DNA of 32,000 nucleotides, taken from an uncultured Pelagibacteraceae bacterium (GTDB lineage Bacteria > Pseudomonadota > Alphaproteobacteria > Pelagibacterales > Pelagibacteraceae). The notes under the pieces are model-generated. The model searched no databases. It was not told the DNA's origin and saw nothing but the letters and a program-made list of their open reading frames with translations. The translations under genes were made by a program, and so were the position numbers. This document shows, in pieces, positions 2,388-18,990 of the stretch (position 1 is the stretch's first letter; each line of letters opens with the position of its first letter). The stretch is from positions 5,596 through 37,595 of the forward strand of contig CACHWQ010000008.1 in assembly GCA_902583645.1 (NCBI GenBank), read 5' to 3'.

Positions 2388-3095
2388 TCATTTTTCTCCT
2401 GTTACAATTGGCTCGGTGCCCTTTGGTCTGTCACCTTCTAAATATTCACCTTTAACTAAGTAATAAATTTGTTCTGCAACATTTGTAGTATGATCACCAA
2501 TACGCTCAACGTTTTTGGTCACAAACAACAAGTGAGTTCCATCCTCTAAATTTTTTTCATTGTCTTTAAGATATTTTATAACATCTTGCATACAAAGATT
2601 TGTTAGATCATCTATTTGCTCATCACCTTCCCAAACATTTACTGCTATTGGCGCAGATCTTTCTAGATAAGCGTCTAATGTTGATTTTAATTGTTTTTGA
2701 ACATTGGTAGATACTCTATTTAGTGAATCTACCAAATTCTTTGGAAGATTTTCATTAAGCAAAAGTGTTCTCTTGGATATATTTTTTGCTAAATCACCTA
2801 TTCTTTCTAAATCTGAAGACATTTTCAAAGCCGTTACTGTCTCCCTTAAATCAATTGCCATAGGTTGTCTTAAAGCAATTAAATTTACAACTTGTTGTTC
2901 AATCAAGGCTTCATATTTATCTATTTTTTCATCATCTTGAATTACATTTTCAGCAATATCACTATTTCTTGTTGTAATGGCTTGAATTGCTTTACCTAAA
3001 GCATCCTCACATGCACTTCCCATCTTAACTATATTAGCATTCAGATTTTTTAGTTCTTCTTCGTAAGATTTAACTGTATGTGGTGCTTCAGACAT
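2388..3095 (-). CDS. phoU: Phosphate signalling modulator PhoU. As read, it is fused in frame to pstB within tracked ORF 2388..3851.
   Basis: The C-terminal 235 aa of the 487-aa ORF show the duplicated PhoU repeat ([12 protein letters not shown] and [12 protein letters not shown]). ATG 3095-3093 overlaps the restored pstB stop as TAATG. Confidence 0.85.
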
Positions 3096-3851
3096 TATCC
3101 AAACCTCCCTGTTATATAATCTTGCGTTTTTTTTATTATCAGGATTCTTAAATATTTTATCAGTAGATCCATGTTCAATCAATTGTCCTAAATGAAAAAA
3201 ACCTGTATTTTGAGAAACACGTGCTGCTTGAGCCATAGAATGAGTTACAATTATTATTGTGTGCTCTTTTTTTAACTCGTCAATCAATTCTTCAATTTGC
3301 GCTGTTGCTATAGGATCTAATGCTGAACAAGGCTCATCCATTAATATAACTTCTGGTCTTACAGAAATCGCTCTAGCAATACAAAGTCTTTGCTGTTGTC
3401 CTCCAGATAATCCAGTTCCAGGTTCATGTAATCTATCTTTTACTTCTTCCCATAGTGCAGCCTTTTTCAAACTAGTTTCAACAATTTCATCCATTTCTTG
3501 TTTTGATTGAGCCATACCATGAATTGTTGGACCGTAAGATACATTTTCATATAAAGTTTTTGGAAAAGGATTAGGTTTTTGAAAAACCATACCAATTTTT
3601 TCTCTTAGTCTTACTACATCACAACTTTTATCATTGATATTAAAGTCATTAATTAAAATTTCTCCTTTAACACTACAAATATCAATTACATCATTCATTC
3701 TATTAAGACATCTTAGGAAAGTTGATTTACCACAACCAGATGGACCAATTAATGCTGTTACTTGATTTTCATCAATATCTAAACTTATATTAAAGAGCGC
3801 TTGTTTTTTTCCATAAAAAACATCAACATCTTTTGCTTTAATCTTTATCAT
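3095..3851 (-). CDS. pstB: Phosphate ABC transporter ATPase PstB. The native C-terminus is recovered only after removing one A from the A8 run (plus-strand T8, 3127-3134).
   Basis: Walker [10 protein letters not shown], signature LSGGQQQRL, Walker [12 protein letters not shown]. The shifted frame after NPDNKK reads [10 protein letters not shown]-stop, the canonical PstB C-terminus, with stop at 3095-3097. Confidence 0.88.
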
Positions 3852-6535: not shown

Positions 6536-6569
6536 AAAAAAAAGGGGTCTAAAAAAGACCCCCTTTTTT
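6536..6569 (-). terminator. Intrinsic terminator/attenuator hairpin between pstS and pstC, structurally bidirectional.
   Basis: Stem GGGGTCT (6544-6550) pairs with AGACCCC (6556-6562) around a 5-nt loop. It is flanked by A8 (6536-6543) and T6 (6564-6569). On the minus-strand transcript the hairpin is followed by U8. Confidence 0.75.
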
Positions 6570-6593
6570 AATCATTTGTTAACTGAGGAATAA

Positions 6594-7625: not shown

Positions 7626-7695
7626 TATCTTTAATCCTTTCTTTATTTTTAATTTAAAAGATTGCTGACAAGTATAAATTTATTGAATCTTTAAT

Positions 7696-7723
7696 ATTAC
7701 AGAATTGTTACACTTTTGTTAAA
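7696..7723 (-). promoter_or_regulatory. Candidate Pho box: three direct hexamer repeats at 11-bp phasing upstream of pstS.
   Basis: The minus strand reads TTTAAC-aaaag-TGTAAC-aattc-TGTAAT, 70-98 nt upstream of the pstS ATG. The geometry resembles PhoB binding sites (direct repeats, 11-bp period). A 15/17 identical copy lies upstream of plcP. Confidence 0.5.
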
Positions 7724-7734
7724 AAGGTAACTTT

Positions 7735-8343
7735 TTAGTTGTATTTTTTTGATATAATTATCTGATCAATATCACTTTCTAGGCCACCAATACATGAAAC
7801 AGGGTTTACCTGTTCATTAAGAGCTAGTTCATTGCTTGGACGTAAAGTTATTTCTAGTTTTACTAAGTTTACTAATTCTTCTCTAATTTCTTCATCATAT
7901 CTCCAGCTTGGCCATGAACTTGGGGTTGAAAATATAGAGGTTAAATAACTTGTAGCCATAGTATATCTGTAATTACTCAAATTTTCATTCCTCAATAAAA
8001 AATCTCTTACAGAATTAAAAATATTTTTACATCTAAAAGAATCTGAAAAATAATTTTCCTTCTTGAGATTTTCATTCATAGGAACAGAAACAATTAAATC
8101 AATTGAATTTTTAGAATACGAGGTAACTACGTCTGTATAAAATTCATCTTCAGTAACTTCTAAATGATCTTTTATAGAAGGATATGAGGTTTTTAAATCT
8201 GCTTCTAATCTAAAAATTCCAATATCAAAAACTGTAAGTTGCTGATTTCTTAATAATGTTGTGATATCTTTAGAAAAAACACTTGTTGTTATAGAACTTA
8301 ACAAAAAAGCAAAAATCAAAATATTTTTGAATATTTTAACCAT
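7735..8343 (-). CDS. Hypothetical secreted/periplasmic protein of unknown function.
   Basis: 202-aa ORF with an N-terminal signal peptide (MVKIFKNILIFAFLLSSITTSVFS) and two Cys residues. I recognise no family motif. It sits between phoR and pstS. Confidence 0.6.
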   Translation of the reverse strand: MVKIFKNILIFAFLLSSITTSVFSKDITTLLRNQQLTVFDIGIFRLEADLKTSYPSIKDHLEVTEDEFYTDVVTSYSKNSIDLIVSVPMNENLKKENYFSDSFRCKNIFNSVRDFLLRNENLSNYRYTMATSYLTSIFSTPSSWPSWRYDEEIREELVNLVKLEITLRPSNELALNEQVNPVSCIGGLESDIDQIIISKKYN

Positions 8344-8433
8344 ATAAAAAATTAATTAAAAGATTAACATTAATCAAGTAAAGAATTGTTAAAAAAACCT
8401 TCTAAAACTATTACAATATAATACTTTTTAAAT

Positions 8434-9580
8434 TTAAGTTTTCGCTGGTAAATAAATTTGAATTTCAGTTCCTTGGTTTTCCTCACTTAGAATCTCATAG
8501 TGTCCACGATGTTGAGTAACTATATGTTTAACAATAGCTAATCCTAAACCAGTTCCACCAACCTTATTACTTTGTTCAAGATCTACTCTAAAAAATCTTT
8601 CTGTAATTCTAGAAATATATCTTTGAGGAATGCCAACACCTTCGTCTTTAACACTGATCATAAAATTTTTTTCTAACAATTTACCATCACTAATTTCACT
8701 TGATATAAAAATAGACTTATTTTCCTTTGAATACTTAATTGCATTATCTAAAAGATTAGAAAAAACAGTTTGTAATTTTTTTTCATCTCCAATAACAATT
8801 GTTGGATTTGTGAGAGATAAATTAATATTTAATTTCTTTTTTTTTAAAACAATCTCAAAATTACTGATGATTGTTTTGAAAAGATCATTTATATTAACTA
8901 AAGAGTTTGGCCTTATGTGTTCTTCTAATTCAATTCTTGTGAGTATTAAAAGATCATTAATTAAATTTTCCATTCTATTTGATTGATCAGTCATTATTTT
9001 CATAAATTTTTTTTTTGCTTTATCGTCTTCTGCCGCTGGACCTTCAATAGTTTCTAAAGATCCTTTGATAGCCATCAAGGGTGTTCTTAATTCATGGCTT
9101 ACATTGGCGACAAAATCAGTTTTAAATTTTTTGTGCTTTTGTAATTTCAGTAAAGTCTTTTAAAAATAACACAACAGAATCTGGTTCAGTAAATAAATGA
9201 GTTGGACCAGGAATAATATAAATTTTATAAAATTGATATGATGGCAAGCCTATTTCAATATCAATATTTTTTGTTTTATTTTCAACTATAGCTTTTTCAA
9301 TATTTTCTATTAATTCTGGTTTTCGAATTACAGATGATATGTTTTTATCAATTAAACTACTACCAAATCTTTTTAATGCACTTGGATTAGCATATTTAAT
9401 TATGTTAAATTTATTTAATGCAAAAAACTGATCCTCAAGCTCATCGATAATTACTCTTTTTGTTTTTTCTTCTCTTTTGTTAATTATTGTGGCGGTATTT
9501 ATTGGTTTGTTTTTTTTTTTGATTAAGTAGATATAGAAGATAAATTATAACAACTATAAGTAGAATGACGAAATATTCCA
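8434..9580 (-). pseudogene. phoR: Phosphate regulon sensor histidine kinase PhoR. As read, it is split into three frames by two homopolymer breaks (plus-strand T6 9127-9132 and T11 9510-9520).
   Basis: The tracked ORF 8434..9078 carries only the N, G1 and G2 boxes (NLLDNAIKY, DEGVGI, GGTGLGLAIVKH). The H-box FVANVSHELRTP lies just upstream in the same frame. Hand translation gives a PAS-like segment (9122-9544; ends DSVVLFLKDFTEITKAQK) in a second frame, and the TM start MEYFVILLIVVIIYLLYLLNQKK (ATG 9580) in a third frame. Removing one A at each tract yields one ORF of about 381 aa. Confidence 0.85.
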
Positions 9581-9645
9581 TAAATTTAGATAGGTTAATT
9601 TTGCATCATTACACTTTTTAATGCAAACAAATTAAGAAAAATTAG

Positions 9646-10653
9646 CTAACGATTTGGTGAAATATTATTAAAAAATATTTTTGCTGTTTCTTCCCATGTG
9701 AATTTTTTTGCAAATTCAAGACAATCATTTCGATCAACTTTTAAAGCTTTATAAGCTGAAACTTTAAGATCATTATCTAGACAATCTATTTTGGAGCCTT
9801 CAAAAATATCTTTAGGACCTGGAACGGGATACGCAGCAACAGGCGTACCGCAATTTAAAGCCTCAGTAACTACAATTCCAAATGTATCTGTTTTACTAGG
9901 GAATACAAAAACATCAGAAGATGCAAAATATGATGCAAGTACACCATTTGTTTTTTCTCCTAAAAATATATCTCTAGGGAATTCTTCTTTTAATTTTTTT
10001 AAATCGGGTCCTTTTCCTATTATTATTTTTGTACCTTCTAAATCACATTCTAAAAAAGCTCTTATATTTTTCTCAACAGCAACTCTTCCAACATAAATCC
10101 AAATTGGTCTTTTGTGGGGTAAATTAATTTTTTGAGGTTTTTTAAAAGCTCCGTGATTTCCTCCTCTGGTCCAAGTAATCATTTTATTATTATCTATACC
10201 TATATCGATTAATTCTTTTCTCATAGATTCTGTTGTTACTAAAATTCTCTCAGCCTTATTATGAAAGTTTGCTAAGAATTTTTCAGCCCATTTTGCAGGT
10301 ATAATTGGAAAGTATAGTTTAAGATATTTATCAAACCTTGTATGAAAACTCGTAGTAAATTTTAGATTATTTTTTAAACAATATCTTCTTGCCATAATCC
10401 CAATGGGACCTTCGGTAGCGATATGAATTGCATCAGGTTTGATTTTCTTTATTAAACTACCAACTCTTGGCCATACATTTATAGATAACCTTATTTCATT
10501 ATATTTAGGCATCGGAAAGGTTAAAAATAAATTTGGAGTAATATATTCTATAGTATGACCTTGTTCTTTTAAGATATTACCTGTTTCATGCAAGGTTCTT
10601 ACGACACCATTTACTTGTGGAAAATATGCATCTGTAGCAATTAAAATTTTCAT
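9646..10653 (-). CDS. agt: GT4-family glycosyltransferase, Agt-like glycolipid synthase (glucosyl/glucuronosyl-diacylglycerol).
   Basis: GT-B fold motifs (MKILIATDAYFPQVNGV, FVFPSKTDTFGIVVTEALNCGTPV). It starts 3 nt downstream of the plcP-like gene, matching the plcP-agt pairing described for marine bacteria under P stress. Confidence 0.75.
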   Translation of the reverse strand: MKILIATDAYFPQVNGVVRTLHETGNILKEQGHTIEYITPNLFLTFPMPKYNEIRLSINVWPRVGSLIKKIKPDAIHIATEGPIGIMARRYCLKNNLKFTTSFHTRFDKYLKLYFPIIPAKWAEKFLANFHNKAERILVTTESMRKELIDIGIDNNKMITWTRGGNHGAFKKPQKINLPHKRPIWIYVGRVAVEKNIRAFLECDLEGTKIIIGKGPDLKKLKEEFPRDIFLGEKTNGVLASYFASSDVFVFPSKTDTFGIVVTEALNCGTPVAAYPVPGPKDIFEGSKIDCLDNDLKVSAYKALKVDRNDCLEFAKKFTWEETAKIFFNNISPNR

Positions 10654-10656
10654 TAA

Positions 10657-11469
10657 CTATGAAGCTTTTTTTAAGTCTTCAGTTTTAATAGGTTTAATTA
10701 TATCTTTAGTGTCTAAATATTGTTCTCTTATTTTATCCCAATATAATATTTCAAAACTACCATCATAATTTTCAGCTAATGCAGTACAAGATTCAACCCA
10801 GTCTCCACAATTTAAATAATTGACACCATTAAAATCTCTATCCTCAGCATGATGGATGTGACCACAAATTATTCCATCAAACTTTTTTCTTTTTGCATAA
10901 TCTGAAACTGTTTTTTCATATTCACCAATATATTTGACTGCGTTTTTGACTTTATACTTTAAAAATTTTGCAAGGGACCAATATTCTTTTCCTCTCAACC
11001 TTCTAAAAAAGTTAATTATTACATTAAATTGTAACAATAAATTATATGCTATTGATCCAATTTTAGATAACCATTTAGCATGTTTCATTACTCCATCCCA
11101 AGCATCACCATGGACAACAACATATTTTTTTCCATTATTTGTTTCATGAATTACTCTATTTAACATATGAATATCACCAAAATGCATTGGAATAAATTTC
11201 CTTAACATCTCGTCATGATTACCCATTATGTAGAACACTTTAGTCCCATGTCTTGCTTTTCTTAAAATTTTTTGGATTACATCATTATGTTCTTGAGGCC
11301 AAAAAAAACTTTTTTGCATTGCCCAGATATCAATAATGTCTCCTACAAGATAAAGATTTTCAGATCTTGAATTTTTAAAAAACTCTAAAATTTTATTCGC
11401 CTGACAACCTTTGGTACCTAAATGCAAATCAGAAATAAATATACTCTTATATTTTAATATATTAGGCAT
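10657..11469 (-). CDS. plcP: LpxH-family metallophosphoesterase, PlcP-like phospholipase C for phosphate-starvation lipid remodelling.
   Basis: Calcineurin-like phosphoesterase motifs (SDLHLG, GDIIDIW, GNHD, VVHGD, GHIH). It forms an operon with a GT4 gene, adjoins the Pho cluster and has a Pho-box-like motif upstream. Confidence 0.75.
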   Translation of the reverse strand: MPNILKYKSIFISDLHLGTKGCQANKILEFFKNSRSENLYLVGDIIDIWAMQKSFFWPQEHNDVIQKILRKARHGTKVFYIMGNHDEMLRKFIPMHFGDIHMLNRVIHETNNGKKYVVVHGDAWDGVMKHAKWLSKIGSIAYNLLLQFNVIINFFRRLRGKEYWSLAKFLKYKVKNAVKYIGEYEKTVSDYAKRKKFDGIICGHIHHAEDRDFNGVNYLNCGDWVESCTALAENYDGSFEILYWDKIREQYLDTKDIIKPIKTEDLKKAS

Positions 11470-11531
11470 TTAAAAATCTTTTTTTTAACACAACTGTAAC
11501 ACGAATCATGTAATTCTTATCTCATTCAAAT

Positions 11532-11548
11532 GTTACAAATTTGTTAAA
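11532..11548 (-). promoter_or_regulatory. Candidate Pho box upstream of plcP-agt.
   Basis: The minus strand reads TTTAAC-aaatt-TGTAAC, 62-79 nt upstream of the plcP ATG. It is 15/17 identical to the first two repeats of the pstS site. Confidence 0.45.
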
Positions 11549-11567
11549 AATTATTTAAGAAATAATT

Positions 11568-12452
11568 ATGTTATATTGTTTAATTTATAATCTAAACTCT
11601 TCTTCAGGAAGAAAATCACAATTCATAAATAGAGTTTTATCTAAGTTAAAAGAAAATAATTCTGTAGACTACTTTGAGACAAAAACAACAAATCAAGCTA
11701 AAGAAATTTTTAGAAATTTTAATCAAAAAAAATACGATCGACTAATAATAGCTGGTGGCGATGGATCGGTATCTTTTGCAATTAATGAACTAATTAAAAA
11801 TGATTTTAACTTTAAACACGATTTTGCCATAGGTTATATACCCGCTGGTACAGCAAATTTACTTCAAGCTGAATTATCAATGAATAAAAAAGTTGATGAT
11901 ATAGTTAATGTATTGATTTCAAACAATTATAAAACCTCTAATCTTGTAAAAATTAACGAAAGTTATTTCTTTTTAATGGCTGGTATAGGATGGGATGCAA
12001 AAATTGTTCATTCAATTAATTCAAAAATTAAAAAGATTCTTGGTAAAATTATATTCGGCATCAAGGGTTTTCAGTATTTCTTATTTATGAATAATAAAAA
12101 ATTAAATGTTACTTTTGATGGACAATTTTATCAAGCAGACTGGATATTATCCTCAAATACCAAATATTACGCTGGCCATCATAAAATAAATAAAACAAAT
12201 ATTTTTGAAGATAAATTAGTTACTTATATATTTAAGGATTTGACTAGAATCAATTTATTATATTCCATATTTTTAATAATCCTTAATGGCGACTTAAGTA
12301 AAAACAAAAATGTTATTACTACTTATTCTCAAAATATCACTATTGAAGGAAATGATTTAATACCTGTTCAAATTGACGGGGATAATTTTGGTTCATATAA
12401 AAAAATTCATTTAAATCAGTCAAATAAAAAAATGAATTTTCTTGTAAAATAA
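11568..12452 (+). CDS. Diacylglycerol-kinase catalytic-domain lipid kinase (YegS/BmrU/LCB5 family).
   Basis: DAGK_cat motifs (IIAGGDGSVSFAINEL, GYIPAGTANLL). It is transcribed divergently from plcP. Confidence 0.7.
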   Translation: MLYCLIYNLNSSSGRKSQFINRVLSKLKENNSVDYFETKTTNQAKEIFRNFNQKKYDRLIIAGGDGSVSFAINELIKNDFNFKHDFAIGYIPAGTANLLQAELSMNKKVDDIVNVLISNNYKTSNLVKINESYFFLMAGIGWDAKIVHSINSKIKKILGKIIFGIKGFQYFLFMNNKKLNVTFDGQFYQADWILSSNTKYYAGHHKINKTNIFEDKLVTYIFKDLTRINLLYSIFLIILNGDLSKNKNVITTYSQNITIEGNDLIPVQIDGDNFGSYKKIHLNQSNKKMNFLVK

Positions 12453-12478
12453 TTATTCGATTATATCTGATTTATTTA

Positions 12479-13576
12479 TTAATTTTTAGATATAATATTT
12501 AATATATCCTTACCATCTATCTTTACTGGATTATTGCCTAATCTTAACAAATTTATACCTTTTAAAACATCCTCAGAACTTTTAATTATATCTATATTAA
12601 ACTTTGTTAAATCATCCTCTAAATTTGCTTTTTTTTTTATTAAAGAAATTTTAGAATTGAAACTATTAATGTCCTGAACATCAAATAAATTAAATATTAA
12701 ATCAAATCTTTTTTTTAAATCAAAAGAAGTTACGGATTTATCTAAATTATCGAAGTTAAATTTAAAAAATTTCTCAAAAAATAAGCTAACTGCATGTCCG
12801 TGACTAATATTAAATAGAGATGTAAATGGATAAGATGCAGCATGTGGGGCAGTAGTTTTAGATATGCTAATTGCTTTACCTGCTAGATTTGAAGCAATAC
12901 TCATCTCTGTTGCATTTTTCATGTTTGGATCGTTAATAAAAGATATAAAACTGTTAACAGAAACTCTTAAAGACTTTGAAGCATATTCAACGCTTTTATC
13001 GTTAGATTTTTTTGACACTAAAGACTCTAAGGCTTGAGCTATAGCATCAAAGCCTGATGATGCTTTTATTTTGTTTGGCGCAGATATTAAAAATTCAGGA
13101 ATTAGGAAAAAATGATCTGGAATTAATAATTCACTTTCAAAAGAGTGTTTAATTCCATTAACATAAATAACTGCATTAGAAGTCACTTCCGCACCAGAGC
13201 CTGCTGTTGTAGGTACAACTGCTAATTTTGTATATTTATTTTTAAACGGATAAGTGTAATTTACAATTAACTCAGCAAGATCGGGTCTAATTTCAACTAC
13301 ATTAGCTATTTTAGCGTAATCGATTACAGCACCTCCACCAATAGCCAAAAATAAATCAGGTTTAAAATTTTTGATATCTTTAATAATTTCAATCAACTCT
13401 TCAAGAATTGGAATTTCTGATTTTTTATAAAATAACTTTATCTCCTTGTTAACAATATTTTTAAGTAGATTTTCAGCACCAGAATTAACAAAAGATTTTT
13501 TGCCACATAAAACAAAAATTTTTTTAAAACTTTTGTCGTTTATGTATTTTAAGATATCTTCACTTGAATTAATCAT
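12479..13576 (-). CDS. Iron-containing (group III) alcohol dehydrogenase, a probable phosphonoacetaldehyde reductase (PhpC/FomC-like).
   Basis: Fe-ADH motifs (GGGAVIDYAK, TTAPHAASYP, ISHGHAVS). Its ATGA overlap with the ppd stop indicates translational coupling within the phosphonate cassette. Confidence 0.7.
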   Translation of the reverse strand: MINSSEDILKYINDKSFKKIFVLCGKKSFVNSGAENLLKNIVNKEIKLFYKKSEIPILEELIEIIKDIKNFKPDLFLAIGGGAVIDYAKIANVVEIRPDLAELIVNYTYPFKNKYTKLAVVPTTAGSGAEVTSNAVIYVNGIKHSFESELLIPDHFFLIPEFLISAPNKIKASSGFDAIAQALESLVSKKSNDKSVEYASKSLRVSVNSFISFINDPNMKNATEMSIASNLAGKAISISKTTAPHAASYPFTSLFNISHGHAVSLFFEKFFKFNFDNLDKSVTSFDLKKRFDLIFNLFDVQDINSFNSKISLIKKKANLEDDLTKFNIDIIKSSEDVLKGINLLRLGNNPVKIDGKDILNIISKN

Positions 13577-14670
13577 TTTTTCATAAATTGATTCTTTATT
13601 TTAATCAAATTGTCTGGTCTAGGTAGTTTTTTAATTTTACTATTAGTTACTTTAACCTCAAAAAAAGCAGGTCCATTTATTTTAATAAAATTGTTAGTTA
13701 TTTTTAATAAATTTTGCTTATTTTTAATTGAATAAAATTTTTTAAAACCTAAACTTTTAGATAGTTTTTCAAAATCTATATTGTTAGCATTAGTGCTTTG
13801 TCCGCCTACAGAGTCATGTGAGTTGTTATTTAATAAAATATATTTAAAATTTTTATTGGCAAAATTACCAGCTGTCATAATCGAGCCTAAATGCATTAAA
13901 AATGAACCATCGCCATCTATACAAAAAGTTTTATTTTTAGAGGCTAATGAATAGCCCAAAGCAACCGATGAAGTATGACCCATGCCACCAACCATATAGA
14001 AATCTTTACTTTTGTTTAAATTAAATTTTTTTCTCAAGTACATTAATTCTCTTGAATTATATCCAGTACTAGAAATGACTTTTGATTTAGATGGAATTTC
14101 TTTAATTAAAGTTTTGAGAAAATATTCTTTGTCTAAACTATAAAAGTCTTTTTTAAAGCTTGATTTACTATTTTTGTGAAGAGTGCCCTGTTCAATTAAA
14201 CAAGCGACTATGGATTGATTTTTTTTTGCATATTTAATTTGCTTATCAAATTTTTTAATATCTTTATTTGATCTTAAAATGGTATATTTAATATTTAATA
14301 GTTTTAAAATCTCTCTAGTAATTTTACCTTTTACATTATGCTGCGGTTCATCTTTAACTCTTGGTGAACCTCTCCACCCTATAATTAATATTAAAGGAAT
14401 TGAGTATACTTTCTTATGAGCTATGGATATTAACGGATTTAAAGCATTAGAAAGTCCTGAATTTTGCATGTAGATGCATGGAATTTTTTTTGTTGAAAGA
14501 TAATGACCTATTGCAATTGAAACTGCGGAGCCTTCGCTAGTTGCAATAATATGATTTCTTTGATTTTTTAAATAAGAAGATAATTCTTTTAAAACACTAT
14601 CAGGTACACCAGTAAAAAAATTAGTGTTATTTTTTTTTAATAAGTTAATTAAAGTATTAACTTTAATCAT
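13573..14670 (-). CDS. ppd: Phosphonopyruvate decarboxylase (thiamine-diphosphate dependent).
   Basis: N-terminal FFTGVPDSVLKEL and the TPP motif GDGSFLMHLGS...LLNNNSHDS. It overlaps the PEP mutase stop by 8 nt (ATGATTAA). Confidence 0.85.
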   Translation of the reverse strand: MIKVNTLINLLKKNNTNFFTGVPDSVLKELSSYLKNQRNHIIATSEGSAVSIAIGHYLSTKKIPCIYMQNSGLSNALNPLISIAHKKVYSIPLILIIGWRGSPRVKDEPQHNVKGKITREILKLLNIKYTILRSNKDIKKFDKQIKYAKKNQSIVACLIEQGTLHKNSKSSFKKDFYSLDKEYFLKTLIKEIPSKSKVISSTGYNSRELMYLRKKFNLNKSKDFYMVGGMGHTSSVALGYSLASKNKTFCIDGDGSFLMHLGSIMTAGNFANKNFKYILLNNNSHDSVGGQSTNANNIDFEKLSKSLGFKKFYSIKNKQNLLKITNNFIKINGPAFFEVKVTNSKIKKLPRPDNLIKIKNQFMKK

Positions 14671-15394
14671 TTTTTATAAGATTAATTATTTTTTTTATTG
14701 GAATTATTTTTTTATCCGCTTCAAGTGCTCTACTATTTTTTAATATAGTTCTGGCTGTATTTTGCATGGCTGGATAAGCTGACCTTAGTAATTGATTTGC
14801 GTAAATTACTAGTTTAAATCCATTTTTAATTAAATCTTTTTCATAAACTTTAGAATAAGTGGATGGAACCGAAACTAAAGGTATAAAATTTTTACTTTTC
14901 CTAAATTCCCTTGCAAAAGAAAAAATTTCTGCAGGGGTTTTTTCTTTACTATGAATTAAAATAGCATCAGCTCCTACTTTAGAATAAATTTCAGCTCGGT
15001 GTAAGGCATCTTTAAGTCCTTTGCCAACTATAAAACTTTCAATTCTAGCTATAACCATAAAATCCTGTGACTGTCTTGTATTACATACTTTTTTAATTTT
15101 ATTTGCAAATAATTTTGGTTTATCTTGCTTAGTGCCTGTCTGATTTTTAAATAATGAATTTTTTTTAAGACCAATTTTATCTTCCATAATTATTGCAGAC
15201 ACGCCAGATCGCTCTAAAGATCTTACTAAAAAAGGTAAATGTTCTATCAAACCACCATTATCTGCATCAAAAACTATTGGTTTAGTCGTAACATCCATCA
15301 AATCATTTAAAGATGAAATACGAGCTGAAAAAGATAATGATGAATTATCAGGAAGACCTTTGGTTGCTGAGTCAGTCAAGCTTGAAGACCACAT
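14663..15394 (-). CDS. pepM: Phosphoenolpyruvate phosphomutase (PepM) catalytic portion. This is the C-terminal fragment of a frame-broken cytidylyltransferase::PepM fusion.
   Basis: Diagnostic PepM motif EDK-X5-NS (MEDKIGLKKNSL), plus DADNGG and ARIESF. The in-frame sequence just upstream of the tracked Met reads KILEFDG, continuing the upstream ORF once one A is removed from the A8 run. Confidence 0.88.
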   Translation of the reverse strand: MWSSSLTDSATKGLPDNSSLSFSARISSLNDLMDVTTKPIVFDADNGGLIEHLPFLVRSLERSGVSAIIMEDKIGLKKNSLFKNQTGTKQDKPKLFANKIKKVCNTRQSQDFMVIARIESFIVGKGLKDALHRAEIYSKVGADAILIHSKEKTPAEIFSFAREFRKSKNFIPLVSVPSTYSKVYEKDLIKNGFKLVIYANQLLRSAYPAMQNTARTILKNSRALEADKKIIPIKKIINLIKND

Positions 15395-15398
15395 TCCA

Positions 15399-15965
15399 TC
15401 AAATTCTAAGATTTTTTTTATTTTTAATTATATTTGTTTTCTCAATAATTAGACCTGTTAGTGAATTGTGTGATTCCAGAATACGCACAATATCTTTAGA
15501 GTTCATTAATCTTTTTAATCTAGAAACACGGTTTTCAGGAGATGTAATGATATTAGACATCTCTTTTTTAATTAAGGTTGATGAAATATTTTTAGTATAT
15601 TTTGGTTCTATAAGTTTTCCTGACCATTTTTTAAGTGCTTTAATTACTCTCTCTCTAGTTTTTTTTTGAACACCTTTTTTCCAATCGTCTCCATGAACTA
15701 CAAAATTTGGTTTTATTAAATTAAGGTTTTCAACATAATCAAGTGTATTTTGTGGAATTACTTTTTTTACGAATTTAATATTTTCAACGACTACTTTTCT
15801 TTTTTCAAAGTTAAGATAAGGAATGTTTTTATAACTGGCTATAGCTTTATCTGTTAAAAGTCCCACATAAACGTCACCATATAAACTCGCTGTCTTTAAT
15901 ATATTGATGTGCCCTTTATGTAAAATATCAGCAGATAAACCAACATAAACTATTTTTTTTTTCAT
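15399..15965 (-). CDS. HxGH-type cytidylyltransferase domain (TagD-like) plus the first ~40 aa of PepM. This is the N-terminal fragment of the fusion.
   Basis: Motifs LHKGHINIL (HxGH), HGDDW and [10 protein letters not shown] (RTxGISTT-like), followed by PepM N-terminal sequence ([27 protein letters not shown]). The ORF ends 7 codons after the A8 tract (plus-strand T8, 15412-15419). Confidence 0.85.
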
Positions 15966-16012
15966 AATTAATTCTCACTATATAATTTTTATACATAAAA
16001 GCGCTAATATTT

Positions 16013-16534
16013 TCATTTAATTAATTTATTAATTTTATTTAACAATTGTTTTGATAAATCTTTTATGGATTTATCAAAATTATTTACTATTATAATGTCA
16101 GGGTTTTTAGGATATTCAGGCTTAATATTTATACCAACTAAGTTTTTTTTTATTTTATTTTGATATAATTTTTTTTTCTTTTTTGATTTTATTATTGTTT
16201 TCACATTACTTTTTATGAAAATCTCTACATAATTTTTAATATTTTTTTTATTCCACATCCTAGGTTTATCCATCATAGCTACAGTCGCAAAAATCAAATT
16301 TATATTTTGGTTGGTAATAAATTTTGCTAATTTACAATATTTTTCTGAAAGTATTTCTCTTTCTTTTAGAGAGTATCCTTTAAAGTTGAATATTCTTCTT
16401 AAATCATCACCACTTATTAGTAAGGTTGGTCCATACAACTTAATTAAATTTTTATGAATTGATTTAGCTAAAGTAGTTTTTCCTGAACCAGAAAGACCTG
16501 TTAACCAAAATAAAATTCCTTTTTTTTTATCCAT
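16013..16534 (-). CDS. cysC: Adenylylsulfate (APS) kinase.
   Basis: P-loop LTGLSGSGKTTLA and an APS-kinase-like length (173 aa). Confidence 0.8.
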   Translation of the reverse strand: MDKKKGILFWLTGLSGSGKTTLAKSIHKNLIKLYGPTLLISGDDLRRIFNFKGYSLKEREILSEKYCKLAKFITNQNINLIFATVAMMDKPRMWNKKNIKNYVEIFIKSNVKTIIKSKKKKKLYQNKIKKNLVGINIKPEYPKNPDIIIVNNFDKSIKDLSKQLLNKINKLIK

Positions 16535-16741
16535 TGTTCACTAAAAAATAAATATTTAATTTATACAATACTTTTTTTAATTATTAATATTTAATTACTT
16601 GATAATATATTTTATATCTATCCTATAAATATAATTAAAATCAATGTAAAACTGAAATATCTCAAATATGTTACTTATAATTAAATAGATTTGTGAAGTT
16701 AAACATTATAAATATAAAATTCTTCTGATAAAAATATTAAT

Positions 16742-17755
16742 ATGGAAATAAAAAAAAGATTAGTTTCATTTTTACGGTCAGGCCTTAGATGGAAATTAAT
16801 AAAATTATCCAAAATAATTAAAATAAACTTATATCCTAAAAAATTTAATTTAAGTATTTATTCCCATAAAATTATTTTCAATTTCATATTTAACGAAAAA
16901 TCTAAAAAAATTAAAAAAATTATTTCACAAAATATAATTGAACAACAAAAATATTCTAAAAAAAATTTAAAATTTCTTGTTTCACCGCCTGGAAGTGGAA
17001 GTACATTTGTAAGATGTATGCTAAGTAGTTATTTTGAAATTTATTATGGTATTGGTAATGGAATACCTAAGTACAATAATATAACTAATGAATGGATGTT
17101 CAGCGGATCACCAATTCTAAGTTCAGATTTGTTTAACTCAATAATAATTGATGAGTCTTTAAATAAAAATAATACAAATAAGTATTTTTCTAAGAAAGAA
17201 TTTTACAAAAATGCTATATTTTTTACTAGGTATCCTTACAAAAATTCAAAAATTGATTTGCACAATTTTAATAATTCAAAATTTATTGTTCTTTTTAGAG
17301 AACCGTATGATTGGATGATTTCACAGTACACAAGGTATGAAAAAAAAAAATATGTTGATAAAAAAAAAGTAAATGTGATTATGATCAAAGAATCTTTAAA
17401 TTACCTTAAAGGATATTATGATTTTTGGATAAAATATTCAAAGCTAAATAAAAAAAAAGTTTTATTCATTGATTACAAAATTCTTACAACAAAAAGTAAT
17501 AAAGCTTTTTTTGAAATATGTAAGTTTATCAATTATAAGATTTCAAATAAGGAATTAATTAACAACTGTGTAAAATATAATTCAAAAAAATATAGTTTAA
17601 AATTAATTAAAGCTAAATTTGAAGGAACCAGATTTTCAAATCCAAATGAAAGAAACAAAATAAAGACTAAGATTTCTAAACATTTGAATAAAGAAATTAA
17701 TAATTTAAATTTTGAAAAAATTTATAATGATCTTTTAAAAAAAGTTGTGATTTAA
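16742..17755 (+). CDS. Putative PAPS-dependent sulfotransferase.
   Basis: 5'-PSB-like loop VSPPGSGSTFVRCML and a 3'-PB-like LFREPYDWMISQY. It is divergent from the APS kinase gene and extremely AT/Lys/Asn rich. Confidence 0.55.
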   Translation: MEIKKRLVSFLRSGLRWKLIKLSKIIKINLYPKKFNLSIYSHKIIFNFIFNEKSKKIKKIISQNIIEQQKYSKKNLKFLVSPPGSGSTFVRCMLSSYFEIYYGIGNGIPKYNNITNEWMFSGSPILSSDLFNSIIIDESLNKNNTNKYFSKKEFYKNAIFFTRYPYKNSKIDLHNFNNSKFIVLFREPYDWMISQYTRYEKKKYVDKKKVNVIMIKESLNYLKGYYDFWIKYSKLNKKKVLFIDYKILTTKSNKAFFEICKFINYKISNKELINNCVKYNSKKYSLKLIKAKFEGTRFSNPNERNKIKTKISKHLNKEINNLNFEKIYNDLLKKVVI

Positions 17756-17799: not shown

Positions 17800-18990
17800 C
17801 TAACTTACACGACCATATACATCTTGATATCTTACAATATCGCTTTCCTTTAAAATTGAGCCAACCTGAACTTCAACAATTTTAACAGGTTTTTTTCCCG
17901 GATTTTGAACTCTGTGGATTGCTTCTAATGGAATGAATATATGTTCACCTGGTTTTTTAACAATTATATCTTTGTTAAGAGTTATTTTAGCATTTCCTTG
18001 TGTCACTAACCAATGTTCAGCTCGGTGATGGTGTTTTTGCAAACTTAAAATGCCTTTTGGTTTTACATATAACTCTTTAATTAAAAACCCTTTTCCCTCA
18101 AATAGATTTGTATATCTGCCCCATGGACGGTAATACACATTTTTTTTCTTAATATATTTGTTTTTATTTTTGTCATACATTTTCAGAATTTCTTTCCAAC
18201 TACCAAGATCTGACCAAGGAATATTTAGTTTGATAGCATTAGTTTGTTTAGTTTTTTCTAGAATTGCATAATCAAAAGATTTAGCAGTCGCTTTTATAAA
18301 TGAAGCTTTATTTAAGTAATAAGTGTTTCCCTTATATTTTGCTTTATTAACTGCATTTAAACAATTTCTGTAAATTTTGGGCTGATATTTTTTAAAGTTA
18401 TTAATAATAGAATCTTTTCGAAGATAAAACATACCAGAATTCCAATAGCCTTTATTCTTTATAATTTGTTTAGCTTTAGCTTCTTTTGGTTTTTCAATAA
18501 ATCTAGTTACTTCGTTATTTTTTGTTAAAAAATAACCAAATTCACTAGAGGGCATTTTGGGTTTAATACCAAAAATAAAGATATTATTTTGAGTAAGTTT
18601 CTTTTGATTTTTTTTGATAGCTTTATTAAATATTCCGATCTTCTCTATTAAATGGTCTGCAGCTAAAAACATTAGAGGCTGTTGGGTAGGAATATCTTTT
18701 ATTAACGCTGCACTTAATATTGCTGGTGCAGTGTTTCTTTTTGTGGGCTCTAAAACAATCTTAAATTGTCTGAATTTATGTTTTTTGAGATGTTGTTTAA
18801 CTTGTTTTAAGTATTTAGAATTAGTGCTGATAATTGGATAATCGTAAATTGATGATTTTATTCTTTCAAGCGTTTTGCCTAACAAAGTCCAGTTTCCAAA
18901 ATCAATAAATTGTTTAGCCTGATGTTTTTTTTGTTTAGGCCAAAGTCTCGTTCCGGAGCCCCCACATAGAATAACAGGTCTTATTTTCAT
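17800..18990 (-). CDS. manC: Mannose-1-phosphate guanylyltransferase with a C-terminal cupin (ManC/CpsB type, compact).
   Basis: Nucleotidyltransferase motif ILCGGSGTRLWP and a cupin segment (RPWGRY, LSLQKHHHRAEHWLV). TAATG overlap with the ilvD stop. Confidence 0.8.
   Translation of the reverse strand: MKIRPVILCGGSGTRLWPKQKKHQAKQFIDFGNWTLLGKTLERIKSSIYDYPIISTNSKYLKQVKQHLKKHKFRQFKIVLEPTKRNTAPAILSAALIKDIPTQQPLMFLAADHLIEKIGIFNKAIKKNQKKLTQNNIFIFGIKPKMPSSEFGYFLTKNNEVTRFIEKPKEAKAKQIIKNKGYWNSGMFYLRKDSIINNFKKYQPKIYRNCLNAVNKAKYKGNTYYLNKASFIKATAKSFDYAILEKTKQTNAIKLNIPWSDLGSWKEILKMYDKNKNKYIKKKNVYYRPWGRYTNLFEGKGFLIKELYVKPKGILSLQKHHHRAEHWLVTQGNAKITLNKDIIVKKPGEHIFIPLEAIHRVQNPGKKPVKIVEVQVGSILKESDIVRYQDVYGRVS

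Follow-up and report, generated by a model that had tools for sequence, protein, structure and literature searches.

A probable SAR11 phosphonate biosynthesis operon of the Fom1/Fom2/FomC type, with candidate sulfation genes in its variable slot

Introduction

Methylphosphonate clusters of the arrangement pepM-ppd-pdh-mpnS were reportedly described from Nitrosopumilus maritimus and SAR11 by Metcalf in 2012 and Born in 2017. SAR11 and Prochlorococcus are putative phosphonate producers for which phosphonoglycoproteins have been proposed; pepM is present in 18% of SAR11 cells, the SAR11 clusters were placed at most 5 kb from capsule and glycan genes, the trait was argued to be gained and lost frequently, and production by SAR11 is unconfirmed (Acker et al. 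2022, PMC8931226). Marine 2-hydroxyethylphosphonate (2-HEP) occurs as polysaccharide esters. Fusions with the cytidylyltransferase domain PF01467 account for 23.6% of Ppm proteins (PMC6697681). SAR11 also has cysC and cysQ, and its AprBA produces APS (PMC5069961).

Here, we analyze a phosphonate cassette within a window of 32,000 nucleotides from an uncultured Pelagibacteraceae bacterium (assembly GCA_902583645.1, contig CACHWQ010000008.1, positions 5,596 to 37,595), using Pfam scans of all window ORFs of at least 100 aa, tblastn searches of the whole window, and a comparison set of 57 Pelagibacteraceae (SAR11) loci. The explanation that we favor as a whole, and regard as the probable one, is that the operon serves SAR11 phosphonate biosynthesis of the Fom1/Fom2/FomC type.

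Results

Operon enzymes and predicted route to CMP-HEP

The operon enzymes are encoded by the following features.

12479..13576, minus strand: Fe-dependent alcohol dehydrogenase (PF00465 and PF25137), putative phosphonoacetaldehyde reductase of the Pdh/PhpC/FomC type that would yield 2-HEP
13573..14670, minus strand: phosphonopyruvate decarboxylase, Ppd (TIGR03297 equivalog)
14663..15394, minus strand: PEP mutase domain, the downstream piece of a split CyTase-PepM (TIGR02320)
15399..15965, minus strand: Fom1-type cytidylyltransferase domain plus the first ~34 PepM residues, ending at a premature stop (PF01467)
15412..15419, unstranded: A8 homopolymer on the coding strand (T8 on the plus strand) with the +1 insertion that splits CyTase-PepM, recognized by comparison with relatives

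A previous sequence-only reading had described a CyTase::pepM fusion, ppd and an Fe-ADH coupled by overlaps. The three enzymes and both overlaps are exactly as it described, with ATGA at 13573-13576 joining the ADH start to the Ppd stop, ATGATTAA joining the Ppd start to the PepM stop, and the aaaaATGATTAAag overlap located at 14663-14670, but the single fusion ORF does not hold, because CyTase and PepM occupy two ORFs in different frames in the given sequence. The HMM matches greatly exceed what chance would give: Ppd scores 368.7 bits against TIGR03297 (HMM cut-off 312.5), and the PepM ORF aligns to positions 41-282 of TIGR02320 (HMM, E=1.9e-94), its translation carrying the catalytic motif EDKIGLKKNS of the EDKxxxxxNS type. 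The CyTase translation contains LHKGH (HxGH) and matches the structure of the Fom1 HEP-cytidylyltransferase domain (5x3d) at 2.2e-51. The Fe-ADH lies under the TIGR03405 cut-off (108 vs 423.7) and shares 80% identity with the ADH from collinear relatives, which have flanks 93-96% identical and carry a gene matching N. maritimus MpnS (6b9s) at 1.4e-113; since MpnS needs 2-HEP, this identity points to HEP as the product. The CyTase-PepM fusion has more than 8000 homologues, JGI names homologues 'PEP phosphomutase / 2-HEP cytidylyltransferase', and the notion that the cassette is unusual was rejected in view of this very large, already annotated family and of the 18% of SAR11 cells with pepM.

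In the proposed route, PepM would convert PEP to phosphonopyruvate, Ppd would decarboxylate it to phosphonoacetaldehyde, the Fe-ADH would reduce the aldehyde to 2-HEP, and the CyTase domain at the N terminus of the PepM protein would form CMP-HEP from 2-HEP and CTP. This predicted sequence of steps, also the one proposed in the sequence-only reading, is well supported by homology and context, and given the 5x3d match, the Ppd score above the equivalog cut-off and the ADH identity it is the best reading of the operon.

Frameshift in CyTase-PepM

The 188-aa ORF comprises the CyTase domain and PepM model positions 1-34 (residues 150-183) up to the stop at 15399, and the 243-aa ORF picks up the PepM model at position 41. 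Removal of one A restores a 433-aa protein that scores 358.9 against the PepM model (cut-off 319.55) and is 100% identical to database protein P0001. The run is A7 in loci L001-L005, L007 and L088-L090, and A7 with an intact 433-aa protein is found in 10/10 related assemblies, four of them 98.6-99.5% identical; across 2-3.5 kb at that identity, the extra A is the only indel. The reading frames of ppk, pstB and phoR are likewise interrupted, by four further +1 insertions in homopolymers (phoR twice; further homopolymer runs at issue, 649-666, 3127-3134, 9132 and 9510-9520), and the insertions of this kind in the window, five coding and one intergenic, all go in the same direction. Given the A7 of the relatives and these same-direction insertions, the break is most probably a homopolymer sequencing error, of the sort documented in ONT Pelagibacter assemblies, so that in the organism itself the gene is most probably intact. 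The genes hit by the five coding frameshifts all relate to phosphorus and lie within the first half of the window (first 16 kb), and valS, ilvD, manC, the ABC transporter and the trk genes of the window carry none. Such a concentration is somewhat unexpected for random errors.

Partners absent from the window

Pfam scans of the window ORFs (at least 100 aa) returned no class-V aminotransferase, MpnS/HepD, radical-SAM, LicD or CDP-alcohol transferase match, and whole-window tblastn with the relatives' MpnS, LicD, CDP-OH-PT, c5, PhyH, ATP sulfurylase and sulfatase-family proteins gave nothing better than E=0.01, revealing in the window neither an mpnS remnant nor an ATP sulfurylase. The absence of an AEP transaminase, an MpnS/HepD dioxygenase, a radical-SAM enzyme and a LicD or CDP-alcohol transferase, as the sequence-only reading had it, is thus borne out, and the enzyme that passes the phosphonyl group from CMP-HEP to an acceptor is not encoded in the window.

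Candidate sulfation genes beside the cassette

16013..16534, minus strand: APS-kinase family protein (PF01583, NF004041), which leads the minus-strand operon and precedes the fusion gene by 47 nt
16535..16741, unstranded: divergent intergenic region with, judging from the gene layout, presumed promoters for the sulfotransferase (plus) and the APS-kinase/phosphonate operon (minus)
16742..17755, plus strand: sulfotransferase-fold protein (PF00685), divergent from the APS kinase

The kinase exceeds the NF004041 subfamily cut-off (134.7 vs 127), lies below the canonical CysC model TIGR00455 (76 vs 138.7), and, compared with five solved APS kinases, is missing the first Asp of DGD as well as the N(I)R and ISP motifs. 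It is directly upstream of, or overlaps, CyT-PepM in 15 of the 57 SAR11 loci. The sulfotransferase scores 32.6 bits against PF00685 (cut-off 22) and belongs to a small family, with only 40 clusters in 5.8 billion proteins, in which the 3'-phosphate-binding motif RxPxDWxxS is conserved and the 5'-phosphosulfate loop reads PGSGST throughout, without the usual Lys/Arg. In its AF2 model (pLDDT 86.9), the top PDB fold matches (low TM-scores of 0.35-0.5) are all PAPS sulfotransferases, the closest being small-molecule SULT/SOT enzymes. Members of the family lie at most 6 kb from an APS kinase and CyT-PepM in seven of the eight sub-lineages examined, despite gene rearrangements, and the family is tied almost exclusively to such clusters; 14 of the 15 kinase-bearing SAR11 species loci have no member of it within 10 kb.

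Modular architecture of the island

17800..18990, minus strand: manC (GDP-mannose pyrophosphorylase/PMI; TIGR01479 at 3.2e-109), conserved left border of the island and possible supplier of a glycan acceptor

Each of the 14 SAR11 loci that occupy this chromosomal site has manC next to the cassette, and in L018 manC overlaps the APS kinase start. The operon is the conserved part of an island that is modular in build and bounded by manC on one side and the pho regulon on the other. Between manC and this core, upstream of the latter, lies a variable slot that would set the end product. In relatives, this slot holds MpnS with a small second CyTase, a PhyH dioxygenase, an unnamed c5 family, an APS kinase, or nothing. 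At other SAR11 loci, LicD, CDP-alcohol transferases, sulfatase-family proteins and glycan genes are found around this core, and ATP sulfurylase also occurs in some phosphonate loci. The flanks are 93-96% identical across relatives and the cassettes only 75-80%, indicating that they evolve as separate units.

Because the slot of this lineage contains an APS kinase and a dedicated sulfotransferase, PAPS-dependent O-sulfation is the most likely tailoring, and these two proteins are most likely the tailoring enzymes of the cassette. Sulfation would act on the free HEP hydroxyl (in HEP, CMP-HEP or glycan-bound HEP) or on a carrier glycan. The likely end product, presumably destined for the cell surface, is a HEP derivative or HEP-glycan that bears sulfate. 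The sequence-only reading is therefore upheld in its enzymology and its absent partners, but neither in an intact fusion nor in its statement that no tailoring enzyme was in sight.

Flanking lipid genes

9646-10653: GT4, whose best NCBIfam hits are glycolipid synthases
10657-11469: metallophosphoesterase, followed at once by the GT4 in a PlcP-Agt-like arrangement beside the pho regulon

Pho-box-like repeats precede pstS and are also found in the gap from plcP to the lipid kinase. In the cassette promoter region (16535-16741), there is no good Pho-box-like repeat, the sole match having two mismatches and being within chance.

Discussion

Alternative explanations

Taken literally, the stop in the given sequence would make CyTase-PepM, ppk, pstB and phoR recent pseudogenes, leaving no phosphonate or, at best, small amounts owing to slippage on A8 during transcription or translation. 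The frequent gain and loss of the trait argued by Acker et al. and the confinement of the five coding frameshifts to phosphorus-metabolism genes would suit such a decay, yet we consider it unlikely: 6/6 indels add one base (+1) to a homopolymer, and such a one-sided bias is typical of base-calling, no lesions other than indels separate the genes from intact relatives, and joint loss of pstB, phoR and ppk would be surprising in a streamlined genome. Alternatively, the three genes might act alone, CMP-HEP being passed to an acceptor by the lipid kinase, the glycosyltransferase or the manC product, in keeping with the candidate partners named in the sequence-only reading. Bare three-gene cassettes do exist among relatives (e.g., L008, L009 and L011), and nine loci at this site have the lipid kinase, metallophosphoesterase and GT4 alongside the cassette; however, these three genes do not intervene in L008 and L009, where phoR directly borders the cassette, the separate evolution of flanks and cassettes argues against a joint function, and Pho-box-like repeats mark the lipid genes and not the cassette. 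The GT4, proposed as a transfer partner, instead fits, together with the metallophosphoesterase, a PlcP-Agt lipid remodeling pair as arranged in SAR11 HTCC7211/HTCC7217, and we regard the stand-alone cassette as highly improbable.

Cj1415 of Campylobacter jejuni is an APS-kinase homologue. By analogy, the kinase could be a nucleotide 3'-kinase acting on CMP-HEP, and the sulfotransferase-fold protein could move the HEP-phosphonyl group from 3'-phospho-CMP-HEP, a PAPS look-alike, to an acceptor. APS and CMP-HEP are isosteric, C. jejuni Cj1415-Cj1418 make CDP-phosphoramidate 3'-phosphate as a donor (PMC11800397), many SAR11 loci devoid of any sulfotransferase show translational coupling of the kinase to CyT-PepM, the phosphosulfate-binding motifs are missing from the kinase and the canonical 5'-PSB Lys/Arg from the sulfotransferase, and tblastn finds no other transferase in the window. 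Against this, the same divergent motifs recur in homologues of the kinase (62-64% identity) whose operon, APS kinase/YmdB-like/ATP sulfurylase, has no PepM in its vicinity and speaks for ordinary PAPS synthesis; with the ATP sulfurylase of some phosphonate loci and the uniformly PAPS-dependent structural neighbors of the transferase, this makes the 3'-kinase very unlikely in our view. A different end point would be a released small molecule, sulfated HEP or HEP itself, if cytidylylation were as transient as that of HEP by Fom1 in fosfomycin biosynthesis (Cho 2017, as cited in PMC6697681). The small-molecule character of the closest sulfotransferase relatives, the missing transferase and the position of the island outside any glycan locus are compatible with this, but the low TM-scores weaken the first point, the window ORF scans showed no FomD-like hydrolase or exporter, and both the transferase and glycan genes around the core in other SAR11 loci and the polysaccharide-bound HEP of the sea speak against release; we consider a free product unlikely.

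Comparison with known systems

With the methylphosphonate clusters, the window shares the PepM-Ppd-Pdh core leading to 2-HEP (pathway as drawn in Acker 2022), and collinear SAR11 relatives carry an MpnS homologue in the slot beside the same core. The window has an APS kinase and a sulfotransferase there instead of mpnS; this lineage is therefore not predicted to be a source of methylphosphonate or of a methane precursor, and conversion to methylphosphonate is not expected in it. The producers of Acker et al. belong to the same organism group, and their pepM marker with EDKxxxxxNS and their island-like, horizontally exchanged trait recur here in a cassette more divergent than its flanks. However, the window represents a second site, from manC-ilvD-valS to the pho regulon, without glycan-assembly genes, and the pairing of APS kinase and sulfotransferase is not mentioned in Acker et al. 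2022 (PMC8931226).

The phosphonyl-tailoring (Pnt) pathways with PntC cytidylyltransferases (Rice et al. 2019, PMC6697681) likewise activate the phosphonate with a nucleotidyl group before its transfer to a cell-surface acceptor by LicD-like transferases. PntC is a PF12804 protein that prefers AEP, whereas the CyTase of the window is PF01467 with HEP as its predicted substrate, and the window has no LicD, its relatives carrying LicD, CDP-alcohol transferases or sulfatase-family proteins. In the O-methyl phosphoramidate pathway of C. jejuni (Cj1415-Cj1418; PMC11800397), a cytidylyltransferase and an APS-kinase-like kinase also stand side by side and serve surface decoration, a likeness of arrangement, and a PAPS-like 3'-phospho-CDP-X donor has its precedent there. 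Unlike in that pathway, the SAR11 kinase has close homologues that are paired with ATP sulfurylase, and the transferases come from a different family. The lipid pair of the window, which adjoins the pho regulon and is preceded by Pho-box-like repeats, resembles in its order, metallophosphoesterase directly before GT4, the PlcP-Agt system of SAR11 HTCC7211/HTCC7217 (PB7211_983 and PB7211_960; Sebastian et al. 2016, PMC4796936), and it lies outside the phosphonate cassette.

Fom1-Fom2-FomC of Streptomyces fosfomycin biosynthesis (Cho et al. 2017, cited in PMC6697681) comprise the same three proteins, a bifunctional CyTase-PepM, Ppd and Fe-ADH, in the same domain order, with the PF01467 CyTase N-terminal to PepM, and the predicted intermediates HEP and CMP-HEP are common to both. 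Fom3 (a B12 radical-SAM enzyme), Fom4 and FomD are absent from the window, and the product is thus not fosfomycin. In contrast to the fosfomycin cluster, the cassette of the window is part of the chromosome of a streamlined marine heterotroph and has an APS kinase and a sulfotransferase at its side.

A conserved core predicted to make CMP-activated 2-hydroxyethylphosphonate

The sequence-only reading of the window described three translationally coupled genes, a fused CyTase-PepM, Ppd and an Fe-ADH, with CMP-activated 2-hydroxyethylphosphonate (CMP-HEP) as the predicted product. The genes and their overlaps are real, and the overlaps ATGATTAA and ATGA can be read directly in the sequence exactly as described. 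However, the fusion is frameshifted in the window sequence, and the minus strand between 12479 and 15965 holds four open reading frames (ORFs) where three genes had been described:

12479-13576, minus strand: Fe-ADH, 365 aa; PF00465 and PF25137
13573-14670, minus strand: Ppd, 365 aa; TIGR03297 at 368.7 bits (cut-off 312.5)
14663-15394, minus strand: PEP mutase part, 243 aa; TIGR02320 positions 41-282, E=1.9e-94; motif EDKIGLKKNS
15399-15965, minus strand: cytidylyltransferase, 188 aa; PF01467 (2.5e-12), LHKGH motif

The last 34 residues of the cytidylyltransferase ORF correspond to positions 1-34 of the PEP mutase model, and the repaired CyTase-PepM scores 358.9 bits against TIGR02320 (cut-off 319.55), compared with 315.9 for the split ORF. 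The catalytic motif EDKxxxxxNS is present in the PepM ORF, where it reads MEDKIGLKKNS, and solved PEP mutases are among the structure matches of this part. Residues 1-135 of the window CyTase match the structure of the CyTase domain of Streptomyces Fom1 (PDB 5x3d; 2.2e-51), a bifunctional HEP cytidylyltransferase/PEP mutase (Rice et al. 2019, PMC6697681). Ppd scores above the curated equivalog cut-off of its model, and a gene of Fe-ADH fold follows it directly through the ATGA overlap. This ADH reaches 108.2 bits against the specific model TIGR03405 (Phn_Fe-ADH), below the cut-off of 423.7, and its solved neighbours in the PDB are generic Fe-ADHs; its predicted role as a phosphonoacetaldehyde reductase rests on context, namely an orthologue beside MpnS. 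Loci L026, L029, L030 and L035-L038 show collinearity with the window, at ~89% nucleotide identity, between pstC and the beginning of the fusion gene. Immediately upstream of that gene, these loci encode a 433-aa protein whose match to N. maritimus MpnS (6b9s; 1.4e-113) is stronger than that to HEPD (1.2e-59). The ADH of these MpnS-bearing loci is 80% identical to that of the window. Since MpnS uses 2-HEP, the orthologous ADH must supply it, which argues strongly, if indirectly, for 2-HEP as the likely product of the window ADH. For the CyTase, homology and the lack of an AEP route point to a putative CTP:2-HEP cytidylyltransferase activity; PF01467 fusions occur in AEP clusters too (Li and Horsman 2022). 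The family models, the 5x3d match and the orthologous ADH of the MpnS-bearing relatives thus uphold the HEP/CMP-HEP route.

The partners listed as missing are indeed absent. Pfam scans of every window ORF of at least 100 aa reveal no MpnS, AEP transaminase, radical-SAM enzyme, LicD or CDP-alcohol transferase, no aminotransferase domain of any kind, and no radical-SAM domain such as a Fom3-type B12 enzyme would carry (a B12 radical-SAM gene occurs in one related sulfotransferase-bearing locus, L091). With the relatives' MpnS as query, tblastn for an MpnS/HepD bicupin reaches no better than E=3.3 in the window; 11 of the 57 SAR11 loci have the gene. Six-frame tblastn of the whole window for remnants of MpnS, LicD, three CDP-alcohol transferases, an NTP transferase, PhyH, ATP sulfurylase, a sulfatase-family protein and the c5 ORF family, all taken from relatives, returned nothing beyond chance, and hidden transferases were dropped from consideration. 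No gene of the window is assigned to the transfer of the phosphonyl group from CMP-HEP, and none is in the many relatives with a bare three-gene cassette.

Homopolymer insertions in phosphorus-related genes

Both domains of the claimed CyTase-PepM fusion are present, but in different frames, with a stop at 15399 just after the run aaaaataaaaaaaat. Dropping one A of this A8 (T8, 15412-15419) restores a 433-aa protein that is 100% identical to the database protein P0001. Six close relatives have A7 at this run. One of these six and three further assemblies align to the window over 2.2-3.6 kb at 98.6-99.5% identity, with the A8/A7 difference as the sole indel; all relatives compared have A7 and an uninterrupted ORF of 432-438 aa.

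Similar lesions occur elsewhere. The phoR gene (8434-9600) is spread over three frames by two +1 insertions, T6 versus T5 at 9132 and T11 versus T10 at 9510-9520, and is intact in relatives L013, L030 and L036 (381-385 aa; T5, T10). An apparent 487-aa PstB-PhoU fusion (2388-3851) arises from a +1 in an A8 run (T8, 3127-3134), so that the final 12 pstB codons are read in the frame of phoU. Once the frame is corrected, phoU starts at an overlapping TAATG, and in relatives the two are separate genes of 256 and 230 aa. In ppk (window 1-1181) the frame changes in a T8/T9 stretch at 649-666, a lysine-rich poly-A region, in the same direction as the other insertions, the base count here being read from the window alone. 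Downstream of pstC, the terminator-like hairpin GGGGTCT-AAAAAA-GACCCCC (6545-6575) has A6 where relatives have A5 (6556).

All of these lesions are +1 insertions in homopolymers, a kind of assembly-induced frameshift documented in Pelagibacter genomes (recent preprint), and for this reason we read the CyTase-PepM break as most probably a sequencing artefact. Every one of the five coding lesions lies in a phosphorus-related gene and in the window's first half, and on this account real pseudogenes are kept as a less likely reading. Taken at face value, the frameshifts would cause pepM, pstB, phoR and ppk to be miscalled.

A variable slot upstream of the core

ORFs were called in all fetched loci and clustered, and gene orders were read. 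The core of CyT-PepM, Ppd and ADH is conserved, with the ADH present in 48 of 57 SAR11 loci (several of the nine others reach a contig end before its position). It lies at two or more chromosomal sites, one between valS-ilvD-manC and the pho regulon, as in the window, and another adjoining an rRNA operon in a glycan-rich hypervariable region. The latter site is seen in L020-L024, L043, L048 and L056 (e.g., L020 15060-19550); ORF clusters c14, c33 and c32 at this site were rejected as spurious ORFs inside rRNA genes. What varies is the position between manC and the core, just upstream of CyTase-PepM, hereafter the slot, which in the window is occupied as follows:

16013-16534, minus strand: APS-kinase family gene
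16742-17755, plus strand: sulfotransferase, divergent
17800-18990, minus strand: manC, bordering the slot

Occupants of the slot in the loci compared
Nothing: L009, L011
MpnS and a separate 146-aa CyTase: 8 loci
PhyH-type dioxygenase: 12 loci
c5 family, 373-415 aa: 8 loci
APS-kinase family gene: 15 loci
APS kinase and divergent sulfotransferase: window lineage

Other loci carry LicD, CDP-alcohol phosphatidyltransferases, sulfatase-family proteins and NTP transferases. Identity between the window and its MpnS-bearing relatives is 93-96% for the flanking lipid kinase, metallophosphoesterase and GT4 but only 75-80% for the cassette proteins, indicating that the cassette with its slot behaves as an exchangeable unit. 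The claim that no tailoring enzyme is in sight fails, with an APS kinase and a sulfotransferase standing next to the core in a variable tailoring slot.

Two slot occupants merit description in their own right. The second, 146-aa CyTase is 52% identical to the fused one and accompanies MpnS in eight of nine loci of collinear SAR11 relatives (e.g., L029 8605-10411; also L026, L030, L035-L038 and L044), which suggests a second cytidylyltransferase, possibly specific for methylphosphonate, in MpnS loci. The c5 family (e.g., L013 8043-9164 and L067 13630-14868), found in eight SAR11 loci, also stands directly after the ADH in loci from Bacteroidales, Ignavibacteria and Planctomycetota, followed in Bacteroidales by YidC-like and sulfatase-domain proteins of 800-1230 aa. 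A guess that c5 is TagF-like was dropped, since neither Pfam nor NCBIfam models matched the family, which stands as a candidate phosphonyl transferase.

A sulfotransferase family tied to phosphonate clusters

The sulfotransferase belongs to a small family (40 clusters among 5.8 billion proteins) and scores 32.6 bits against PF00685 (cut-off 22). Its AlphaFold (AF2) model has a pLDDT of 86.9. Each of the 50 best PDB matches by fold is a sulfotransferase or the closely related retinol dehydratase, solved with PAP or PAPS; the fold neighbours are mostly small-molecule SULT/SOT enzymes, with modest TM-scores. Across 24 members, the 3'-phosphate-binding motif RxPxDxxxS (here RxPxDWxxS) is kept, with R186, P188, D190 and S194 invariant or nearly so. 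The canonical 5'-phosphosulfate-binding loop is P[KR]xG[ST]T; no Lys or Arg is found at this loop in the family, which reads P(G/S)SGS(T/N) and resembles a P-loop (PGSGST). A GNGIPK motif is invariant in the family and may substitute for the basic residue of the loop. A regular expression for PAPS-binding motifs gave no match, the pattern being too strict.

An APS-kinase gene and CyT-PepM are found beside family members or no more than 6 kb away, in differing gene orders, and only L094, the most distant member examined (36% identity), is unlinked.

Loci in which the sulfotransferase is linked to the APS-kinase gene and CyT-PepM (identity; companions)
L001, L003-L007, window lineage: 92-100%
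L096: 49%; PhyH
L091: 43%; TauD-type oxygenase and B12 radical-SAM enzyme
L092: 41%; TylF methyltransferase, GT4, small CyTase and Glyphos_transf protein
L104: 40%; TauD-type oxygenase and TylF-type methyltransferase
L105: 38%
L050

A family HMM run over all fetched loci found no distant members in loci with the kinase only, and the family is absent from all MpnS loci. The sulfotransferase family is specifically tied to phosphonate clusters. A TylF-type O-methyltransferase stands beside the sulfotransferase/APS-kinase pair in L092 (2614-3303), L104 (4317-5009) and L105 (1214-1861), a hint that O-methylation may be an additional tailoring reaction or a substitute one.

The product of the adjacent APS-kinase family gene has a P-loop and matches PF01583 (8.8e-19) and NF004041 'adenylyl-sulfate kinase' (134.7 bits, cut-off 127), and falls below the cut-off of the canonical TIGR00455 (76.2 bits versus 138.7). 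Three motifs shared by five solved APS kinases are changed in the window protein: DGD to SGD, N(I)R to LSE and (I/V)SP to VAM. No ATP sulfurylase is encoded in the window, and in many SAR11 loci the kinase gene overlaps the CyT-PepM start with no sulfotransferase within 10 kb. Two homologues that are 62-64% identical and share the divergent motifs belong to operons in which APS kinase is joined by a YmdB-like phosphoesterase and ATP sulfurylase, away from any PepM, and this association argues for ordinary PAPS synthesis by the subfamily. A SAR11 operon of APS kinase, YmdB-like metallophosphoesterase and ATP sulfurylase (L102 5001-9883, L101 5001-9693) also encodes a 515-aa NAD_binding_9 protein and a further protein, of 306 aa in L102 and broken into separate ORFs in L101, and in L102 it adjoins the glycan genes NeuB, DegT and a formyltransferase; it may be a module for PAPS and sulfated glycan in an organism said to lack sulfate assimilation.

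Proposed sulfation and a less likely phosphonyl transfer

We infer PAPS supply, sulfation and the other pathway steps as follows. PepM, Ppd and the ADH would make 2-HEP, which the fused CyTase would convert to CMP-HEP; the kinase would supply PAPS, and the dedicated sulfotransferase would sulfate either HEP on its free 2-hydroxyl, whether HEP is then free, bound to CMP or bound to a glycan, or alternatively a carrier glycan. Of these, the hydroxyl of HEP suggests itself most readily because the sulfotransferase tracks the phosphonate core and not any glycan gene, because the family is absent from the MpnS loci, whose product has no hydroxyl, and because its structural neighbours act on small molecules. 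We tentatively propose, at somewhat below even confidence, that this dedicated PAPS sulfotransferase makes a sulfated phosphonate, either 2-sulfooxyethylphosphonate or a sulfated HEP-glycan. To our knowledge, compounds of this class have so far not been described from the ocean.

The missing APS-binding motifs of the kinase, and its tight coupling to CyT-PepM in many SAR11 loci that have no sulfotransferase, suggest a parallel with C. jejuni, in which Cj1415-Cj1418 make CDP-phosphoramidate 3'-phosphate, a PAPS-like donor (PMC11800397). By analogy, the kinase would phosphorylate the 3'-OH of CMP-HEP, and the protein of sulfotransferase fold would be a phosphonyl transferase using this PAPS look-alike for HEP attachment; the missing transferase would then be in plain sight, a sulfotransferase fold recruited for P-C group transfer. 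The 62-64% identical homologues, which have these motifs too, are encoded together with ATP sulfurylase in an operon, and on this finding we downgraded the Cj1415-type CMP-HEP 3'-kinase to an improbable explanation. SAR11 can make APS from sulfite via AprBA, with cysC and cysQ common (PMC5069961), which together with the ATP sulfurylase association favours PAPS-dependent sulfation.

An apparently positional adjacency to the phosphate-starvation genes

The neighbouring lipid kinase and glycosyltransferases had been put forward as candidate partners of the cassette. In the window, a metallophosphoesterase (10657-11469) followed by a GT4 (9646-10653) fits the domain pair and order of plcP-agt, which drives phospholipid-to-glycolipid remodelling in SAR11 HTCC7211/HTCC7217 (Sebastian et al. 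2016, PMC4796936). A YegS/DAGK-type lipid kinase (11568-12452) diverges from the same intergenic region as the metallophosphoesterase, and this trio is 93-96% conserved in nine loci. Between pstS and phoR lies a 202-aa protein (7735-8343; cluster c30) with a signal-peptide-like N-terminus and no Pfam or NCBIfam match, found in the same place in seven relatives.

The Pho-box-like direct repeat GTAACA-N5-GTAAYA, with at most one mismatch, occurs only upstream of pstS (7695-7722, as three half-sites) and between plcP and the lipid kinase (11485-11547). The intergenic DNA in front of the APS kinase and cassette has just a two-mismatch match at chance level, and the window total (11 versus 7.6 +/- 2.7 expected) is not above chance, giving no sign that the cassette is under Pho control; scans for sigma-70 promoters and terminators gave no useful information in DNA so rich in AT. 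The metallophosphoesterase, GT4 and lipid kinase are missing beside the cassette in L008 and L009, where it borders phoR directly. This layout and the repeat distribution make the adjacency to phosphate-starvation genes look positional, and neither the GT4 nor the lipid kinase shows any sign of being a partner of the cassette. Overall, the route and the listed absences survive from the earlier interpretation, and the lack of tailoring and the proposed partners do not.

Comparison with known phosphonate systems

SAR11 is a possible major marine phosphonate source: 18% of its cells carry pepM, and experimental confirmation of phosphonate production is still awaited (Acker et al. 2022, PMC8931226). 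Our comparison describes one conserved HEP/CMP-HEP core with interchangeable tailoring modules in the same slot, namely MpnS with a second CyTase, a PhyH dioxygenase, or an APS kinase with or without a sulfotransferase. Metagenome pepM counts hence do not equal methylphosphonate or methane potential, and the window lineage is predicted not to make methylphosphonate. A compact five-gene module of sulfotransferase, APS kinase, CyTase-PepM, Ppd and ADH is nominated for further study.

The likeness of the window pair to PlcP-Agt (PB7211_983, PB7211_960) is drawn from domains and gene order. At the rRNA site, an L056 operon (8142-17338) with an MpnS-like gene, APS kinase, CyT-PepM, Ppd, ADH, an FkbM methyltransferase, a 575-aa sulfatase-family protein and a radical-SAM/SPASM maturase-like enzyme resembles the methylphosphonate cluster of N. 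maritimus. The repaired CyTase-PepM has >8000 homologues, many carrying the JGI name 'phosphoenolpyruvate phosphomutase / 2-hydroxyethylphosphonate cytidylyltransferase', and a scan of species-representative genomes yielded 57 Pelagibacteraceae loci alongside Bacteroidales, Ignavibacteria and others. A PF01467 domain is present on 23.6% of all Ppm proteins (Rice et al. 2019, PMC6697681), and HEP ranks third in commonness among early intermediates, with marine sequences under-sampled (Li and Horsman 2022). This large annotated family and the literature place the three-gene core among known systems, and it is an abundant one. What appears to be new, in the literature searched, is the modular slot with its dedicated sulfotransferase/APS-kinase add-on.
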